Virus record (IMG/VR): IMGVR_UViG_3300046518_000157
Span: 1-24,397 of that record
Length of the DNA stretch: 24,397 nucleotides
Reading direction: 5' to 3' (one strand)
Origin: a virus
Taxonomy: Duplodnaviria; Heunggongvirae; Uroviricota; Caudoviricetes
Below, one piece after another: positions 13,707 through 19,432 of this stretch (its first letter is position 1; every line of letters begins with the position of its first letter). The notes beneath the pieces were generated by a model that had not been told where the DNA came from, did not search any database, and saw only the letters and a program-made list of their open reading frames with translations. Both the position numbers and the translations under genes were made by a program.

Positions 13707-14960
13707 ATGGCAGTCGATTTAGAATATTTCGGTGTACCACCGGCAGACTACAGAGAGCAAGAGCTTCGCACTCGGCTTACTGCAACTGTTGGTCAAACTA
13801 CATTTTCAGCCCCGTATTCTCCAGGCAACGTTGACGTTTTCTACAACGGGGCTAAACTCGACCCTTTTTCTGAGTTTACCGGCACTGATGGAGCAAACAT
13901 TGTACTTGCTAGTGGCGCATTCGCTACTGGTGATATCGTTGAAGTTATCTCACGTTCACAAGTACAAGTATCAAACATTTACACGAAGCAGCAAGTAGAT
14001 AACCTTGCTGGTAACTTCTATGGTATCGCAACCGGTACAGGTAACGCTCAAGTCGTAACTACAGTTCCTACTTTTGCAGCGTATCTGGATGGCATGGAAA
14101 TCAAGGTTCGTGCAGTTGCAGCTAACTCTTCTGCTACGCCTACTATTGCTATTAATGGTATTACTGCTAAGACTATTGTTTCTAACAATGCTGCAGCGGC
14201 TCTGTTCACTAACGACTGGGTAGCTGGTTCAGAGATTACGCTTCGCTACAATCAGACTCTGGATAAACTGGTACTTCTTGAGGGAGCTACTACGATAGCT
14301 ACCCCTGCTCAGTTTGCTAACAATAATCAGGTTCCGAGTACTTTGTTTGTTCAAAGAGCTTTGGGAAATAGAAGTACATCAGTTAACGCTAATACAACAA
14401 GAACTTTAACTACTTCACAGGTTGGAAGTTTAATTTCTACATTTGGAGCTACTGGGCCAATCACATTGACACTTCCTGACGTTAGTGCTTTTACTGCTGG
14501 TACCGGTCAATCGTATCTGATTACTAACCCATCATTATTTCCAATTACTCTGACGTCTACGTCATTTTTCTCTCAACCTTGGGGGCCATCCGGAGGACAA
14601 AATAATTTTGTGCTACAATCGGGAGTATCAGTAGAATGTATTTCAGATGGAGGTAGTTGGAATCTTGTAGGTGGTGGCGGTTCATCTTCTCTACTCACCA
14701 ATGGCCTTCAAAGACTTCCAAGTGGAATGATAATGCAGTGGGGTACAACAACTTCCATAACAACAGGAACAAGTATAACTGTAACCCTTCCTGTAGCCAT
14801 GCCTGCAAACATTCTACAAGTAATGATTACATCTCAGTCTTCTGCAAACGGTACAGTTCCGTTTAGTGGAGGTTGGCAAGCAATTAACAACGCTACATTT
14901 ACACTAAGAAATAACTCCACGCTAACTGGACAGTATTCTTGGATGGCAATCGGTTATTAA
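13707..14960 (+). CDS. Tail fibre protein (paralog 1)
   Basis: N-terminal GQTTF...VDVFYNG domain, PAQF...FVQRALG motif, and a C-terminal GLQRLPSGMIMQWG fibre-tip domain. Confidence 0.85.
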   Translation: MAVDLEYFGVPPADYREQELRTRLTATVGQTTFSAPYSPGNVDVFYNGAKLDPFSEFTGTDGANIVLASGAFATGDIVEVISRSQVQVSNIYTKQQVDNLAGNFYGIATGTGNAQVVTTVPTFAAYLDGMEIKVRAVAANSSATPTIAINGITAKTIVSNNAAAALFTNDWVAGSEITLRYNQTLDKLVLLEGATTIATPAQFANNNQVPSTLFVQRALGNRSTSVNANTTRTLTTSQVGSLISTFGATGPITLTLPDVSAFTAGTGQSYLITNPSLFPITLTSTSFFSQPWGPSGGQNNFVLQSGVSVECISDGGSWNLVGGGGSSSLLTNGLQRLPSGMIMQWGTTTSITTGTSITVTLPVAMPANILQVMITSQSSANGTVPFSGGWQAINNATFTLRNNSTLTGQYSWMAIGY

Positions 14961-14996
14961 GAATTAAAATCACATAGTAATTAACAAGGCAAACAA

Positions 14997-15593
14997 ATGG
15001 CACTTTTTTATTCAAAGTCAACTGGTGGATTCTACGATGATTCAATCCACACGGCTGCACAAATTCCTTCAGACGCAGTAGCGATTACTGAAGTACAACA
15101 TCAAGCGCTGCTTACAGGTCAATCTGCAGGCAAGCTAATTACGGCTGATGCTAATGGCAACCCTATTCTTACAGATCCTCCTGCACCTCCACTTGCTGAT
15201 GTTCAAGCACGCTCACTAGCAGCTCTTGACGACGCTGCAGAAGTGCTTCGTGGAAAGTTCATCACGGCTAACTCAGGTCAAGTAGCTACGTATCTGCTCA
15301 AGCAAAACCAAGCTGCAGCATTCAAGGCTGCTAACTACACCGGTACAGTTCCAGGCCTAGTACAAGCTGAAGCAGATGCTACTGGTGATACTGCTAAAGT
15401 TTCATGTGACACGATTCTTGCTCAGTATGATCTGTGGTGCACTCTTGCAGCATCAATTGAGACCGCACGTCGTACAGCTAAGGTTGCAGTGAGCGCAGCA
15501 ACTACGGTAGATGCTGTCAACTCAGCTGTAAGCTCGGCCCAAGCTGCATTTGCACAAATTGAAACACAAGCAGGTTCAGGTTCGGTCGAATAA
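14997..15593 (+). CDS. Tail fibre assembly chaperone (Tfa-like)
   Basis: FYSKSTGGFYDDSIH...IPSDAVAITE..HQALL.GQS.GK.I..DANG.P.L.DPP is a classic Tfa N-terminus. Directly follows the fibre gene. Confidence 0.85.
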   Translation: MALFYSKSTGGFYDDSIHTAAQIPSDAVAITEVQHQALLTGQSAGKLITADANGNPILTDPPAPPLADVQARSLAALDDAAEVLRGKFITANSGQVATYLLKQNQAAAFKAANYTGTVPGLVQAEADATGDTAKVSCDTILAQYDLWCTLAASIETARRTAKVAVSAATTVDAVNSAVSSAQAAFAQIETQAGSGSVE

Positions 15594-15605: not shown

Positions 15606-16121
15606 ATGAAGTACGATGATGTACGCAATTCTATCAAGACTGGCGATCTTATCGCTGTAAGAAATAAGAAATTCCAGTTCTTGCCCATTGCGACCCGAAT
15701 TGTAACGAATAGCCCGTACACACATACGGGCATTGCAATTTGGGCAGGTGGTCGTTTGCTGTTAGCTCAGACAAACGCTGGAGGCTGCAACGTCGTTCCC
15801 CTTTCACAAGAAGCGGAATACGACTTTGATGTTTTTGAGTGTCCAGTTGACCGTGACAAGTGCGAGGCTGTAATTTGGTCCGAGCTTGGTTCAAGAATCC
15901 CTTATGGTTTTATTGATTTAGCTCGTATCTTTGGTTACAAAGTGTTCGGCATCCCTCTCCCACAATCTGATGGAGCCGACCTAGTCTGCAGCGCACTATC
16001 AGCGACCATATATAAACTATGTGGTTGGAACCCAGTAGGGTTACCATCTATTCCTTGGCCAGGCGCTGTTACAGACCAGTTACAAAATGCAAAGAAATTC
16101 GAAGTAGAAGCTTCGACATAA
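15606..16121 (+). CDS. Permuted papain-like (YaeF/YiiX-type NlpC/P60) amidase/peptidase
   Basis: IKTGDLI, YTHTGI (His) and LVCSAL (Cys) occur in the permuted His-before-Cys order. Confidence 0.8.
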   Translation: MKYDDVRNSIKTGDLIAVRNKKFQFLPIATRIVTNSPYTHTGIAIWAGGRLLLAQTNAGGCNVVPLSQEAEYDFDVFECPVDRDKCEAVIWSELGSRIPYGFIDLARIFGYKVFGIPLPQSDGADLVCSALSATIYKLCGWNPVGLPSIPWPGAVTDQLQNAKKFEVEAST

Positions 16122-16146
16122 TACTAAATTAATAGGGGAATATTCT

Positions 16147-16596
16147 ATGGCTGAGCCAGTCACTACATCTGCCGGGGCAATCTTTACTATTGCTAAAGCA
16201 TGGTCCATCCTTGCGGGGGTATCTGGCTCTGTCGTTCCTATTCTTGCATTAAGTGATCAAAACAAGACTAGTTTCAAGAACGCTTTATTCATGGCGATAG
16301 TAGGTTCATCCTTTGCTATTTTCATGGGTCCTTGGATTGCAGATAACGCTAACGTTCATTCAACAGAGGGTGTAGTTGCTCTCTCTTGGGCTTTGGGCGC
16401 TGTTGGTGTTTATGTAATCAGAGCAGTTCTAAGATGGATCGACAAACGAGGCGAAGACGCAGTAGATCAAATCGTAAACAGAGTAATCGGCGGTGATTCA
16501 CGCGACGATGAAAAGCAAGTTATCCGTGAGACTATAGTCATTGAAGATCGCCGGTCTCTTCCTTCTCAAGGTGGGCCATTTGAGGAAAACAAATGA
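16147..16596 (+). CDS. Holin-like membrane protein (about 3 TM, charged C-tail)
   Basis: Three hydrophobic segments, an MAEP N-terminus and a highly charged C-terminus. Confidence 0.55.
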   Translation: MAEPVTTSAGAIFTIAKAWSILAGVSGSVVPILALSDQNKTSFKNALFMAIVGSSFAIFMGPWIADNANVHSTEGVVALSWALGAVGVYVIRAVLRWIDKRGEDAVDQIVNRVIGGDSRDDEKQVIRETIVIEDRRSLPSQGGPFEENK

Positions 16597-16979
16597 TCTC
16601 GACTTTTTTAAACCTGCTTGCTGATGTAAATATACCGCTTGTTCTTAATTTCCTTATTTCAATAGGGATGGGTTTCTGTGGTTTCTTTTTTGCGTTTGTA
16701 ATTAAGAACAAGAATATCAAGAACAAGTGGTTCACGTCTCTTCGATACATTCTAATACTTCTCTCCATCTCAGCTTTCAGCAATGCTTACTGTTTAGGTA
16801 TTCTGGGCTACAAAGTGGTTCAGCCGAGCGAGTTACTTCTCCATCTATCAGTTTTAGTATTCATGCTTTGGGGAACAGCTTACTATCTATTCAATATAGT
16901 TGGCTCAGGCACAAGTCTAACTCAAGAGAAAGTATTAAAATTCATTGAGAAAGAACATTCAACTACGAGTACACAATGA
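16593..16979 (+). CDS. Second holin-like membrane protein (about 3 TM)
   Basis: Three hydrophobic segments with a Lys-rich loop (KNKNIKNK). ATGA-coupled to the previous gene. Confidence 0.5.
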   Translation: MISTFLNLLADVNIPLVLNFLISIGMGFCGFFFAFVIKNKNIKNKWFTSLRYILILLSISAFSNAYCLGILGYKVVQPSELLLHLSVLVFMLWGTAYYLFNIVGSGTSLTQEKVLKFIEKEHSTTSTQ

Positions 16980-17014
16980 TTGCTCGTAGTTTTTAGAAAC
17001 TATAAACTATGAGC
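16961..17014 (+). promoter_or_regulatory. Alternative-hairpin element over the start codon of fibre paralog 2, with mini-ORF MIARSF (16976-16996)
   Basis: 16961-16969 AACTACGAG is the exact reverse complement of 16983-16991. 16982-16992 GCTCGTAGTTT also pairs with 17004-17014 AAACTATGAGC (one G-U), which contains the ATG. Confidence 0.55.
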
Positions 17015-18049
17015 TATTTTGGTCTACCTCTTTACCCAGTATCTCCTCCTAATCAGCAAGCAGTAGTCACAATCGTCGGGAACACTACCCTTGGCGTTGG
17101 TGCAGCTACGTATGACAAACAGTTCATGATTACTGGTGCTGGCGGTTATACAATCACGCTTCCTTCACTTGATGGTGTGAATTTCCCATCCAAGTCATAC
17201 AGCATTTTCAATAGTAGCTCTGCTCTTTGCACAGTAAACTGCGCTGGTTCAGACACTGCACTTCTGCTTGGTTCAAGCTTTACTTCATTTTCTATTCTTC
17301 CCGGTGAACGTATTCTTGTTCAAAACATGGTTACGTCATGGATTGTAGCATTGGAGAGCGCTTCTAGAACTACGACTGCACCTCAATTTGATAGTACTAT
17401 TCGTAATGCAAGTACAGCTTGGGTTAGACAGTTTGGATTACAATACTCCGCAAATTTTGGAGTTTCTTCTAACGCTACTCTAACTGCAGCCCAAGTTGCT
17501 GGAGCGATTTGCAACATTCAAGGCAATAACATAACCGTAACTCTGCCCTTAACTTCTACAGCAGTTATTGGTACTAGAGTAGAATTTGTTAGTGGCGGAG
17601 GTACTAACACTATTCAACGGCAGGGCTCAGACGTTATTTCTACGAACTTTTCAAATAACGTTAACTCTATCGTTTTAAACGCTGGAGATTCAGCAACTTT
17701 GGTGTACATGGGTACTGGGCAATGGTACGTTGTAGGTGGATCAGTTCAGATTGGTTTATCTGGTTCGTTTCTGCCAAATTTTTCAAACAACGGTTTCCAA
17801 AAACTTCCTAGTGGATTGATAATGCAGTGGGGTTATAGCGCAGCAGTAGCGTTTAATACTACCACAATAGTAACCTTTCCTATTTCTTTTCCAACGCAAT
17901 GTATCGGAGTAACTGCTACTGCGTTTGGCGCGGCTGGAAATTATGCATCTCCTGAAGTTTTTAATAAGTCAACTACCAACTGTACCGTAGGTAACCCTAC
18001 TACTGGAAGTACCGCTACTGCTTACTTCGTTGTTGCAATTGGTAATTAA
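17009..18049 (+). CDS. Tail fibre / receptor-binding protein (paralog 2)
   Basis: Two tandem TITLP...GE/D...W.V domains, TTAPQFD...TAWVRQ, and a GFQKLPSGLIMQWG tip. Confidence 0.8.
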   Translation: MSYFGLPLYPVSPPNQQAVVTIVGNTTLGVGAATYDKQFMITGAGGYTITLPSLDGVNFPSKSYSIFNSSSALCTVNCAGSDTALLLGSSFTSFSILPGERILVQNMVTSWIVALESASRTTTAPQFDSTIRNASTAWVRQFGLQYSANFGVSSNATLTAAQVAGAICNIQGNNITVTLPLTSTAVIGTRVEFVSGGGTNTIQRQGSDVISTNFSNNVNSIVLNAGDSATLVYMGTGQWYVVGGSVQIGLSGSFLPNFSNNGFQKLPSGLIMQWGYSAAVAFNTTTIVTFPISFPTQCIGVTATAFGAAGNYASPEVFNKSTTNCTVGNPTTGSTATAYFVVAIGN

Positions 18050-18062
18050 GGAATAAATAAAA

Positions 18063-18821
18063 ATGGCACGTACAAGAAATTTAGGTAATTTGACTGATCT
18101 GCTTACTGCAGGGTCAACTTACGTCACAACAACTACTCCTCCGCAGTTTGACAATGGTACAAATTTGTCAACAACGGGTTTTGTGCAACGAGCACTTGGA
18201 AATTTTTCAGGGTATTTGAGCTTAGGGGTAAATACAGCGCTTACTGCGGCCCATGCCGGTTTTTTCATTACATGCGCTGGAACTACATTAACAATTACTT
18301 TGCCACAAGTTAGTACAATGGTAATTGGCTCTCAGATCACTATTTCTGCTGCAGGTGGTGCTACTGCATTGACTGTAGCAACGTTTGCTGGCGATACCTT
18401 AGTAGGAGCTAATAATCCTAATACAAGTATCTTGATGGGCGTGGACGAGTATTTAACTGCTATCGTTGTAGGTCCAACTTCATGGGTTGTAATTGGAAAT
18501 ACTCCTCGTATTTTGAGTCAAAATGCTATGTTTAGTACCTCACTTTTGTCAACAGCTGGCTTTCAAAAATTACCAAGTGGAGTTATTTTACAATGGGGAA
18601 ATGGAAACTATACCGCCCAGACAACTACAACTAGCAATTTTGCGATGACGTTTCCAAATAGCTGTTTGGCTACTTATGCAAGCTTGGGTTTTAACCTTTC
18701 ACTTACAACGAATAGCGTTGGTATAGGTATCCAGGCTATCAGCACTTCCCAATTTAAATTAACGGTACCTTCTGCAGGTGCCGGTACGACAGGGTGCTCC
18801 TGGCTTGCAATTGGTGTATAA
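18063..18821 (+). CDS. Short tail fibre / receptor-binding protein (paralog 3)
   Basis: TPPQFDNGTNLSTTGFVQRALG and GFQKLPSGVILQWG motifs. GGA upstream as a possible RBS. Confidence 0.8.
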   Translation: MARTRNLGNLTDLLTAGSTYVTTTTPPQFDNGTNLSTTGFVQRALGNFSGYLSLGVNTALTAAHAGFFITCAGTTLTITLPQVSTMVIGSQITISAAGGATALTVATFAGDTLVGANNPNTSILMGVDEYLTAIVVGPTSWVVIGNTPRILSQNAMFSTSLLSTAGFQKLPSGVILQWGNGNYTAQTTTTSNFAMTFPNSCLATYASLGFNLSLTTNSVGIGIQAISTSQFKLTVPSAGAGTTGCSWLAIGV

Positions 18822-18892: not shown

Positions 18893-19432
18893 ATGATACT
18901 TACACAAGCACAACTCAAAACAATCGCTCCGACGATGAATCAAACTCGTCTGGACACGTTCACAGATCCAATCAATGAAACGTTGATTAAATACGGCATT
19001 ACTGAAATGCCAATCGTTGCTATGTTCATCGCTCAAGTCATGCATGAGAGCTGTGGATGTATCTATACGACAGAACTCGCTTCAGGACAAGCCTATGAAG
19101 GGCGTAAGGATCTAGGAAATACTCAGAAGGGTGACGGTGTGCTGTATAAGGGTCGAGGTCTAATCCAGGTTACAGGCAGATCTAATTACGCTGCAATGAC
19201 AATGGCTCTTGACCACGATTTTCTGTCTCACCCCACTGACTTAGCTTTGCCTGAATGGGCCGCACTATCAGCAGGACAATTCTGGAAGGATAAAAATCTT
19301 TCAGACTTGGCTCAGCCTAATACTGATGACGCCTTTTTAAAAGTAACCAAGCGAATTAATGGCGGCACTAATGGTCTGGCCGACAGACAAGCCTACTGGG
19401 CCCGTGCCAAGAAAGTCCTAGGAGTTAACTAA
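18893..19432 (+). CDS. Endolysin, glycoside hydrolase family 19 (chitinase-like lysozyme)
   Basis: AMFIAQVMHES, YEGRKDLGN...GDG..YKGRGLIQVTGRSNY and VTKRINGGTNGLADR. Confidence 0.95.
   Translation: MILTQAQLKTIAPTMNQTRLDTFTDPINETLIKYGITEMPIVAMFIAQVMHESCGCIYTTELASGQAYEGRKDLGNTQKGDGVLYKGRGLIQVTGRSNYAAMTMALDHDFLSHPTDLALPEWAALSAGQFWKDKNLSDLAQPNTDDAFLKVTKRINGGTNGLADRQAYWARAKKVLGVN

Follow-up and report, generated by a model that had tools for sequence, protein, structure and literature searches.

A candidate three-part RNA element between a membrane-protein gene and a tail-fibre gene in the late operon of a 181-kb phage

The gene for tail-fibre paralog 2 of the phage studied here starts 29 nt behind a membrane-protein gene on the same strand, and its start codon can be drawn into a hairpin. 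This raises the question of how ribosomes gain access to the fibre start, and whether this access depends on translation of the preceding gene, as had been proposed in a first-pass annotation that described an attenuator-like RNA switch with a short open reading frame (mini-ORF) at this place. The whole stretch of DNA that was analysed (hereafter, the window) has a length of 24,397 nt, and positions are those of the window unless stated otherwise. It originates from a 181,435-bp IMG/VR phage record with terminal repeats and a G+C content of 44%, which we take to represent an uncultivated phage from a little-known group with genomes of ~180 kb. A megablast search with the region 16000-18200 gave zero matches among the GenBank phages.

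The late-gene cluster and the junction element

A cluster of late genes on the + strand spans the region, and the operon is tightly packed. All in + orientation, the genes are those for fibre paralog 1 (13707-14960), a Tfa-like chaperone (14997-15593), a 171-aa protein encoded between the chaperone and the holin-like gene, a holin-like protein (16147-16596) that matches the PHROG holin family phrog_2359, a membrane protein of 128 aa (16593-16979 in the list of open reading frames, with the stop codon TGA at 16977-16979), fibre paralog 2 (17009-18049; 346 aa with a Gp53-like C-terminal domain), fibre paralog 3 (18063-18821) and an endolysin (18893-19432). The ATG of the membrane-protein gene overlaps with the stop codon of the holin-like gene in an ATGA sequence (16593-16596). 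The 128-aa protein gave zero matches in PHROG and Pfam and, judged from its hydrophobic stretches, resembles a membrane protein having three helices and a charged tail at the C-terminus; 29 homologues were collected, which share the tail ...GTSLTQEKVLKFIEKEH. The N-terminus of fibre paralog 2 (MSYFG.P.YP) is conserved from the first codon, and hence its start is placed correctly. The order of the genes is unusual in that lysis and fibre functions are interleaved: the lysis-type membrane genes lie between fibre paralog 1 with the chaperone and fibre paralogs 2 and 3, and the endolysin gene and a spanin-like gene lie 3' of the fibres.

The element at the junction of the membrane-protein gene and fibre paralog 2 is a well-delimited 55 nt and has three segments, all on the + strand. 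Segment 1, the "anti-sequestor" (16961-16971, AACTACGAGTA), is formed by the last codons of the membrane-protein gene (ACT ACG AGT A). Segment 2, the "sequestor" (16981-16992, TGCTCGTAGTTT), begins 2 nt past the stop codon and is the arm shared by two pairings. Segment 3 (17004-17014, AAACTATGAGC) consists of AAACT, the ATG of fibre paralog 2 (17009-17011) and AGC. In the upstream hairpin (1:2), segment 1 pairs with 16981-16991 through nine Watson-Crick pairs plus a U-G and an A-U pair, enclosing a 9-nt loop (16972-16980, CACAATGAT) that contains both the stop codon and the ATG of the mini-ORF (16976-16978). In the downstream hairpin (2:3), 16982-16992 pair with segment 3 through 11 bp, one of which is G-U. 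The choice of segment 2 between these two partners had been claimed beforehand, and its coordinates and pairings proved correct. The same holds for the observation that the ATGA at the membrane-gene stop opens a six-codon ORF on the + strand (16976-16996; ATG ATT GCT CGT AGT TTT TAG, MIARSF*) in frame with the fibre ATG at 17009, and for the lack of an obvious Shine-Dalgarno sequence of the fibre gene: a GGAG-like sequence is absent from the 25 nt 5' of the ATG. Among 236 starts of the genome, positions -5 to -1 are A-rich and G is weakly enriched at -11 to -8; on this sequence evidence, Shine-Dalgarno pairing seems to contribute little to initiation in this combination of phage and host.

Double hairpins with a shared arm, helices of at least 10 bp and at most one G-U pair occur once per strand in the 181-kb genome, and zero were found in 100 dinucleotide-shuffled genomes. 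With a looser threshold (9 bp, at most two G-U pairs), about one shared-arm pair per strand is expected by chance, and the significance of the element therefore rests on the length of its helices. The window contains four copies of the 9-mer AACTAYGAG, where 0.4 would be expected, and a stretch of 55 nt holds three of them. The one other shared-arm double hairpin of the genome (50536-50665, outside the window) is located between convergent or adjacent genes and was considered as a relative of the element; this was rejected, as it is an ordinary strong bidirectional terminator with A- and T-runs, having the sequence AAAAAGCCCAG...CTGGGCTTTTTTT followed by a second GC-rich hairpin. Rfam gave zero matches for 16500-17500 at E <= 1, and a second copy of the 141-nt block was not found in the genome.

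Several promoter-like motifs were noted in the genome and around the junction. The most enriched 7/8-mer in the upstream intergenic regions genome-wide is (T)TAAAATA (13.9-fold, in 12 regions), which is reminiscent of the T4 late-promoter element TATAAATA. It is present almost only on the + strand, 13-94 nt 5' of + strand ATGs and often right after a terminator, making it a candidate late-promoter element of the phage. In the window it is found at 14964 (TTAAAATC), 33 nt 5' of the ATG of the Tfa-like gene at 14997. In three cases (genome positions 27220, 53453 and 80412) it lies only 5-6 nt before an ATG, which would imply leaderless or near-leaderless mRNAs. In a genome-wide k-mer count, TTGGTATAAG-like words, present in 17 upstream intergenic regions with an 8-10-fold enrichment, are probably the sign of a second class of promoters, one with an extended -10-like element. 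Matches to sigma-70-like promoters near the junction are at chance level only. Directly 5' of segment 1, the stretch 16927-16956 (GAGAAAGTATTAAAATTCATTGAGAAAGAACA) constitutes the most conserved 30 nt of a 1.5-kb region compared among seven relatives, with a mean identity of 0.95 versus about 0.65 around it. It encodes the invariant tail EKVLKFIEKEH and contains, at 16935, the variant motif TTAAAATT, by which an internal transcript start near 16950 is hinted at.

Predicted folding of the junction and masking of the fibre start

The two hairpins are of similar stability: the calculated energy of 1:2 is -13.0 kcal/mol, and that of 2:3 is -13.6 kcal/mol for its core and -15.8 kcal/mol for an extended form that takes in the stop codon of the membrane-protein gene. 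For the 81 nt of 16950-17030, the minimum free energy structure is the 2:3 hairpin (-19.3 kcal/mol, z = -3.55). The two pairings exclude each other in silico, as had been proposed, and at equilibrium the probability of 2:3 is about 0.9-1.0 in three sequence contexts, which bears out the claim that the downstream pairing buries the fibre ATG. When the growing transcript was folded, 1:2 was the sole structure until position 17014 had been made, after which 2:3 mostly prevailed. The barrier along the direct path between 1:2 and 2:3 is about 10-11 kcal/mol, for which a rough Arrhenius estimate, rather than a computation, gives a time of seconds or longer.

The accessibility of the start was compared with that of the other genes by folding the region from -60 to +40 around each of 236 crudely called gene starts. 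With a mean unpaired probability of 0.027 between -5 and +5, compared to a median of 0.51, the start of fibre paralog 2 is the least accessible (rank 1 of 236), and values of 0.25 or lower are found for just 8% of the starts in the genome. The cost of opening this start is less extreme (6.3 kcal/mol, compared to a genome mean of 3.7 +/- 2.4 kcal/mol), because segment 2 pairs again with segment 1 once it is released from the start. According to the folding model, this fallback of segment 2 onto segment 1 would be the behaviour expected of a switch.

The effect of ribosomes was modelled by placing a 27-nt footprint along the end of the membrane-protein gene. A footprint on segment 1 brings the probability of 2:3 to 1. 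When the stop codon occupies the A site, nucleotides up to about 16988 are covered by the footprint, and the probability of 2:3 drops to 0. Thus, the footprint model agrees with the earlier proposal that a ribosome finishing the membrane-protein gene would sit on segment 2 and unmask the fibre ATG.

Variation of the element among relatives

Protein-guided searches yielded 14 distinct junction variants (designated here by L numbers); scans of IMG/VR and JGI data contributed nine distinct loci, and look-ups of exact proteins gave eight more loci with DNA. Nine variants retain hairpin 1:2, and in each of them the loop contains the stop codon; RNAalifold also selects this hairpin as the family consensus. 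Its helix shows three double changes, namely G-C to A-U (L027), U-A to C-G (L031 and L033) and A-U to U-A (L028), the last of which was read by eye as the MAFFT alignment is wrong there. The 1:2 helix also has nine G-U cells among the variants; on the other strand, or in a DNA palindrome, they would be A-C mismatches, which argues for a function as RNA of + sense. In a covariation shuffle control with nine sequences, 1:2 was not separated from the null, and the case for this hairpin is therefore based on the three double changes and the G-U pairs rather than on a statistic. Hence, we regard the covariation evidence for 1:2 as suggestive.

The situation for 2:3 is different. It is kept, with 10-11 bp, in the window group and in L004, L006, L007, L026, L031 and L036, and is confined to the nearer subclade. 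Double changes or covariation in 2:3 were not found among the variants: every change is a wobble-compatible transition in segment 2, segment 3 is not free to vary in the half that consists of ATG AGC, and TAAACT-ATG is invariant in the nearer subclade. In L027, L028, L030, L032 and L033, 2:3 is weak or gone while both genes are intact, apart from an ATT instead of the ATG in L032. Thus, the covariation that had been suggested as a check is indicated for 1:2 by three compensatory double changes, and is not seen for 2:3, which is moreover not universal. In L006, 2:3 is the weaker of the two helices, and about half of the start is open. L033 has the upstream sequence of L031, and 2:3 is lost where its fibre N-terminus departs from the second codon onwards. 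The natural variants therefore shift the balance between the two states, as can be seen by comparing the window with L006 and with L027 or L033.

Masking of the fibre start extends to a variant that does not have 1:2. L029 contains two GC-rich, terminator-like hairpins in a 46-nt insert in the gap, and its start is masked by another sequence, AGUUCGUAAG, which includes the stop codon and pairs across the insert with UUUAUGAGCU. Including L029, the unpaired probability between -5 and +5 is 0.25 or lower in 7 of the 14 junction variants, compared to 8% of the genes in the genome, although it should be noted that the variants are related and that this count is not independent. Some features of individual loci were observed as well. 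L031 (1705-1780) and L033 (1861-1936) are near-identical through the end of the membrane-protein gene and the intergenic region up to the fibre ATG, and their fibre N-termini (MSYFG... and MSEYG...) differ from the second codon; this looks like a breakpoint of module exchange exactly at the fibre start. The membrane-protein gene of L029 (about 1830-1890) has one extra G (GGGGACAAG versus GGCACAAG), by which the called protein is cut to 118 aa, and L032 (about 890-900) has ATT where all others have the fibre ATG. From their sequences, these two changes would be either assembly errors or signs of decaying copies.

The variants also bear on the mini-ORF, which according to the first-pass annotation controls the fibre start. 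Its ATG arises incidentally from CAA-TGA and is confined to loci with TGA as the stop codon: it is absent in L026, L027 and L028, whose stop codon is TAA, and is TTG in L031. The peptides (MIARSF, MTARSWFL, MMARSLF and MIKLVV) vary in sequence and length, and the frame of the mini-ORF relative to segment 2 varies too. MIARSF is not known to contain an arrest motif, and a Shine-Dalgarno sequence of the mini-ORF's own is absent. Consequently, the mini-ORF is real as a sequence but is probably not a functional part of the element, and the claim that it controls the fibre start was not upheld. The mini-ORF could serve ribosomes that re-initiate there as a stepping stone to the fibre ATG, although nothing requires this. 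It is in this light that a translational attenuation of the ermC type has to be judged, in which translation of, or stalling on, the mini-ORF would shift the balance between 1:2 and 2:3 and induce fibre paralog 2. The mini-ORF does traverse segment 2, the ATGA overlap at which it begins could allow ribosomes to re-initiate, and L006, L007 and L036 also have mini-ORFs that end 7-13 nt before the fibre ATG. Besides the variability just described, there are three segments rather than four, a leader ORF ahead of segment 1 and an inducer logic are lacking, and the ORF is located on the sequestor itself, so that any ribosome there would open the start without stalling. We therefore abandoned the ermC label, and consider this mechanism highly improbable. 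Two other possibilities for ribosomes at this site were rejected. Readthrough from the mini-ORF into the fibre gene is precluded by the intervening in-frame stop codons TAG at 16994 and TAA at 17003. Ribosome hopping of the gene-60 type, from ACT at 16962 in the membrane-protein frame to ACT at 17006 in the fibre frame, was dismissed because no stop or slow codon follows the take-off site and the match is lost in L027, L029 and L030.

Possible functions and comparison with known systems

What follows builds on the observed pairings, with their energies, their rarity and a conservation that is partial. The reading that we favour, tentatively, is that anti-sequestor, sequestor and start codon form a three-part element that would couple translation of fibre paralog 2 to that of the membrane-protein gene by RNA unfolding; as a model it could quite well be correct. 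The element would sit on a late polycistronic mRNA which, when left alone, would relax into 2:3 and bury the Shine-Dalgarno-less AUG of fibre paralog 2. A ribosome at the stop codon of the membrane-protein gene, 2 nt 5' of segment 2, would occupy or unwind segment 2 and thereby free the AUG, such that translation of the two genes would be coupled. Hairpin 1:2, which would form first during transcription and compete for segment 2, would set how much and for how long the AUG is open. The mini-ORF would not be needed for any of these steps. We infer that ribosomes drive the opening, and that the opening matters for the output of fibre paralog 2. Since the pairings are exclusive, the ATG is hidden and a terminating ribosome is predicted to cover segment 2, the dependence of fibre translation on ribosomes finishing the upstream gene, as had been put forward earlier, appears to be the best available reading. 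It is supported further by the fit of the stop codon to segment 2, the lack of a Shine-Dalgarno sequence, the packed operon, the recurrence of masking in relatives, the compensatory changes in 1:2 and the fact that this class of mechanism is established. Several points weaken the proposed coupling. The changes in 2:3 also follow automatically from compensatory evolution of 1:2, and 2:3 is weak or absent in the five variants named above, with the start of L006 being half open. The gain in opening energy is modest. In addition, published library data tie structure just past the stop codon to poorer coupling (PMC12548453, citing Chemla 2020). Our confidence is not higher because no pairing is needed to account for the sequence of segment 3: its ATG AGC is coding and ancestral, and the AACT found at -4 to -1 is the joint commonest start context (9 of the 236 starts versus about 1.3 expected, i.e., about seven times). 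Moreover, segment 1 (ACT ACG AGY, Thr-Thr-Ser) resembles segment 3, so that partial pairing with the fibre start is to be expected of any arm that has evolved as a partner of segment 1.

This resemblance underlies the main rival explanation, which we consider possible but rather doubtful, namely that only 1:2 has been selected, as an element at the end of the gene, and that 2:3 is a by-product arising as AACT-ATG-AGC happens to resemble the codons ACT-ACG-AGY. Hairpin 1:2 would then be a weak terminator, a stabiliser of the 3' end, a processing site or an insulator between the lysis-type genes and fibre paralog 2. This would fit with 1:2 being the family consensus and the sole helix with compensatory changes, with the significance of the stop-in-loop hairpin in 9 of 13 variants, with the GC-rich hairpins and U-rich tails that L029 and L032 have at the same place, with the U-run following 1:2 in the window, L006 and L007, and with the facts that AACT is generally favoured and that ATG AGC is ancestral even without 2:3. 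However, the U-tract is not kept in L026, L031 and L033, and the AU-rich stem and 9-nt loop do not resemble the clear terminators of the genome. In the window, 1:2 is followed by U5, three U of which lie beyond the stem, making it weakly terminator-like, and only 4 of its 11 pairs are G-C; it lacks the features of an intrinsic terminator and is a poor one. Furthermore, a second helix of 11 bp on a shared arm is unexpected by chance (zero in the 100 shuffles), the start is the most occluded one in the genome, and L029 masks its start with a different sequence. Termination might instead involve the other hairpin, as in attenuation of the trp type, in which 2:3 followed by UAUUUUGG would be a terminator at the start of fibre paralog 2 and 1:2 the anti-terminator, the choice being made by the position of the ribosome at the end of the membrane-protein gene. 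The order of folding, with 1:2 first, and the modelled effects of ribosomes, which favour 2:3 when on segment 1 and abolish it when at the stop codon, agree with this, and the base of 2:3 is GC-rich and adjoins a tail with 5 U in 8 nt. On the other hand, this tail is coding (Tyr-Phe-Gly) and its synonymous U/C sites are not richer in U in variants with 2:3 than in those without, the 11-nt loop and AU-rich stem differ from the real terminators of the genome, and a terminator scan did not report 2:3. We consider this mechanism quite unlikely.

Other alternatives retain the masked start but change what opens it. A transcript starting just 5' of segment 1 could behave as a delayed-folding timer in the style of the MS2 maturation gene, where 1:2 would leave the AUG open for seconds before 2:3 silences it, without an upstream ribosome. 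The layout matches the metastable hairpin, upstream complementary sequence and ribosome-binding site of MS2 (PMC4615214), the barrier of about 10-11 kcal/mol is appropriate, and the conserved stretch just 5' of segment 1 contains TTAAAATT, a one-base variant of TAAAATA. This variant lacks the final A of the enriched motif, however, and is not itself enriched in intergenic DNA, and the invariant peptide EKVLKFIEKEH may explain the conservation of the stretch; we regard such a transcript-borne timer as very unlikely. A ribosome-reset two-state timer in place of simple coupling is unlikely. In that case, a ribosome on segment 1 would force the closed state and at the stop codon would open it, after which the RNA would choose again between two near-isoenergetic hairpins separated by a barrier of about 10 kcal/mol; this three-step action would follow from the anti-sequestor hairpin having the stop codon in its loop. 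If true, the output of fibre paralog 2 would be non-linear in upstream ribosome traffic or mRNA age and could be set at a low, fixed ratio of the alternative receptor-binding fibre, and a large dsDNA phage would possess a delayed-folding device in the style of MS2. Finally, the three copies of AACTAYGAG within 55 bp (two direct, one inverted, with centres 22 bp apart) may suggest a DNA-level element bound by a regulatory or recombination protein. Their spacing is not constant among the relatives (22-25 and 22-24 bp), the motif does not recur in the rest of the genome, and the nine G-U cells would be A-C mismatches in DNA, which makes this explanation scarcely tenable.

How does the coupling proposed here relate to known systems? 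The late genes e, soc and 49 of T4 have a late promoter inside the hairpin, giving transcripts without the 5' arm. As here, a hairpin occludes the initiation site of a late phage gene on long read-through transcripts. Control of the gene e type was nevertheless rejected for the junction, as a TAAAATA-like motif is absent from 16981-17009 and the nearest variant lies 5' of segment 1. As in ermC and ermB, alternative hairpins would set the exposure of the initiation site and a ribosome would shift them (PMC5118997). However, the erm systems have a leader peptide with its own Shine-Dalgarno sequence, drug-dependent stalling, and four segments with the leader ORF on segment 1 (PMC5118997), which were not found here. 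With the maturation gene of MS2, the initiation site is sequestered only after the upstream complementary sequence has first been held by a metastable hairpin (PMC4615214; van Meerten 2001 cited there). The three-part logic is shared, as is a barrier that provides a time window for translation (PMC4615214), and in silico 1:2 likewise forms first and holds segment 2 behind a sizeable barrier. The differences are that MS2 masks a Shine-Dalgarno sequence through a long-distance interaction in the 5' UTR of an RNA genome (PMC4615214), whereas at the junction a local hairpin within the polycistronic mRNA of a dsDNA phage would hide the AUG itself, and that the first arm is coding sequence here and will thus be swept by ribosomes.

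The closest likeness is with coupling by RNA unfolding, for which genes VII-IX of f1, the coat-lysis and coat-replicase pairs of MS2, and rpmI-rplT and atpH-atpA of E. coli are examples (PMC12548453). In these cases too, the end of the upstream ORF supplies one arm of a helix that buries the downstream start, the helix is opened by a translating or terminating ribosome, and the downstream start is weak or has no Shine-Dalgarno sequence (PMC12548453). Correspondingly, the in silico structure at the junction covers the downstream start and the partner arm is within reach of upstream ribosomes. Here, by contrast, the masking arm can also pair with an upstream partner that is almost as strong, the loop of the competing hairpin contains the stop codon, and the pair of genes is unusual, a lysis-type membrane protein followed by a tail-fibre paralog. 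Structure-mediated coupling and delayed-folding devices are already known, and the element does not define a new class of mechanism. What is uncommon is a sequestor with two nearly isoenergetic partners together with a stop codon in the competing loop, which could make the output of fibre paralog 2 depend on ribosome traffic in a non-trivial manner. If the proposed coupling holds, the synthesis of a second receptor-binding fibre would be set at the level of translation by the preceding gene, and the junction would provide a clean natural case of a masked, Shine-Dalgarno-less start with a competing anti-sequestor, as well as a test case for how ribosome traffic and the kinetics of RNA refolding together set protein ratios in an operon.
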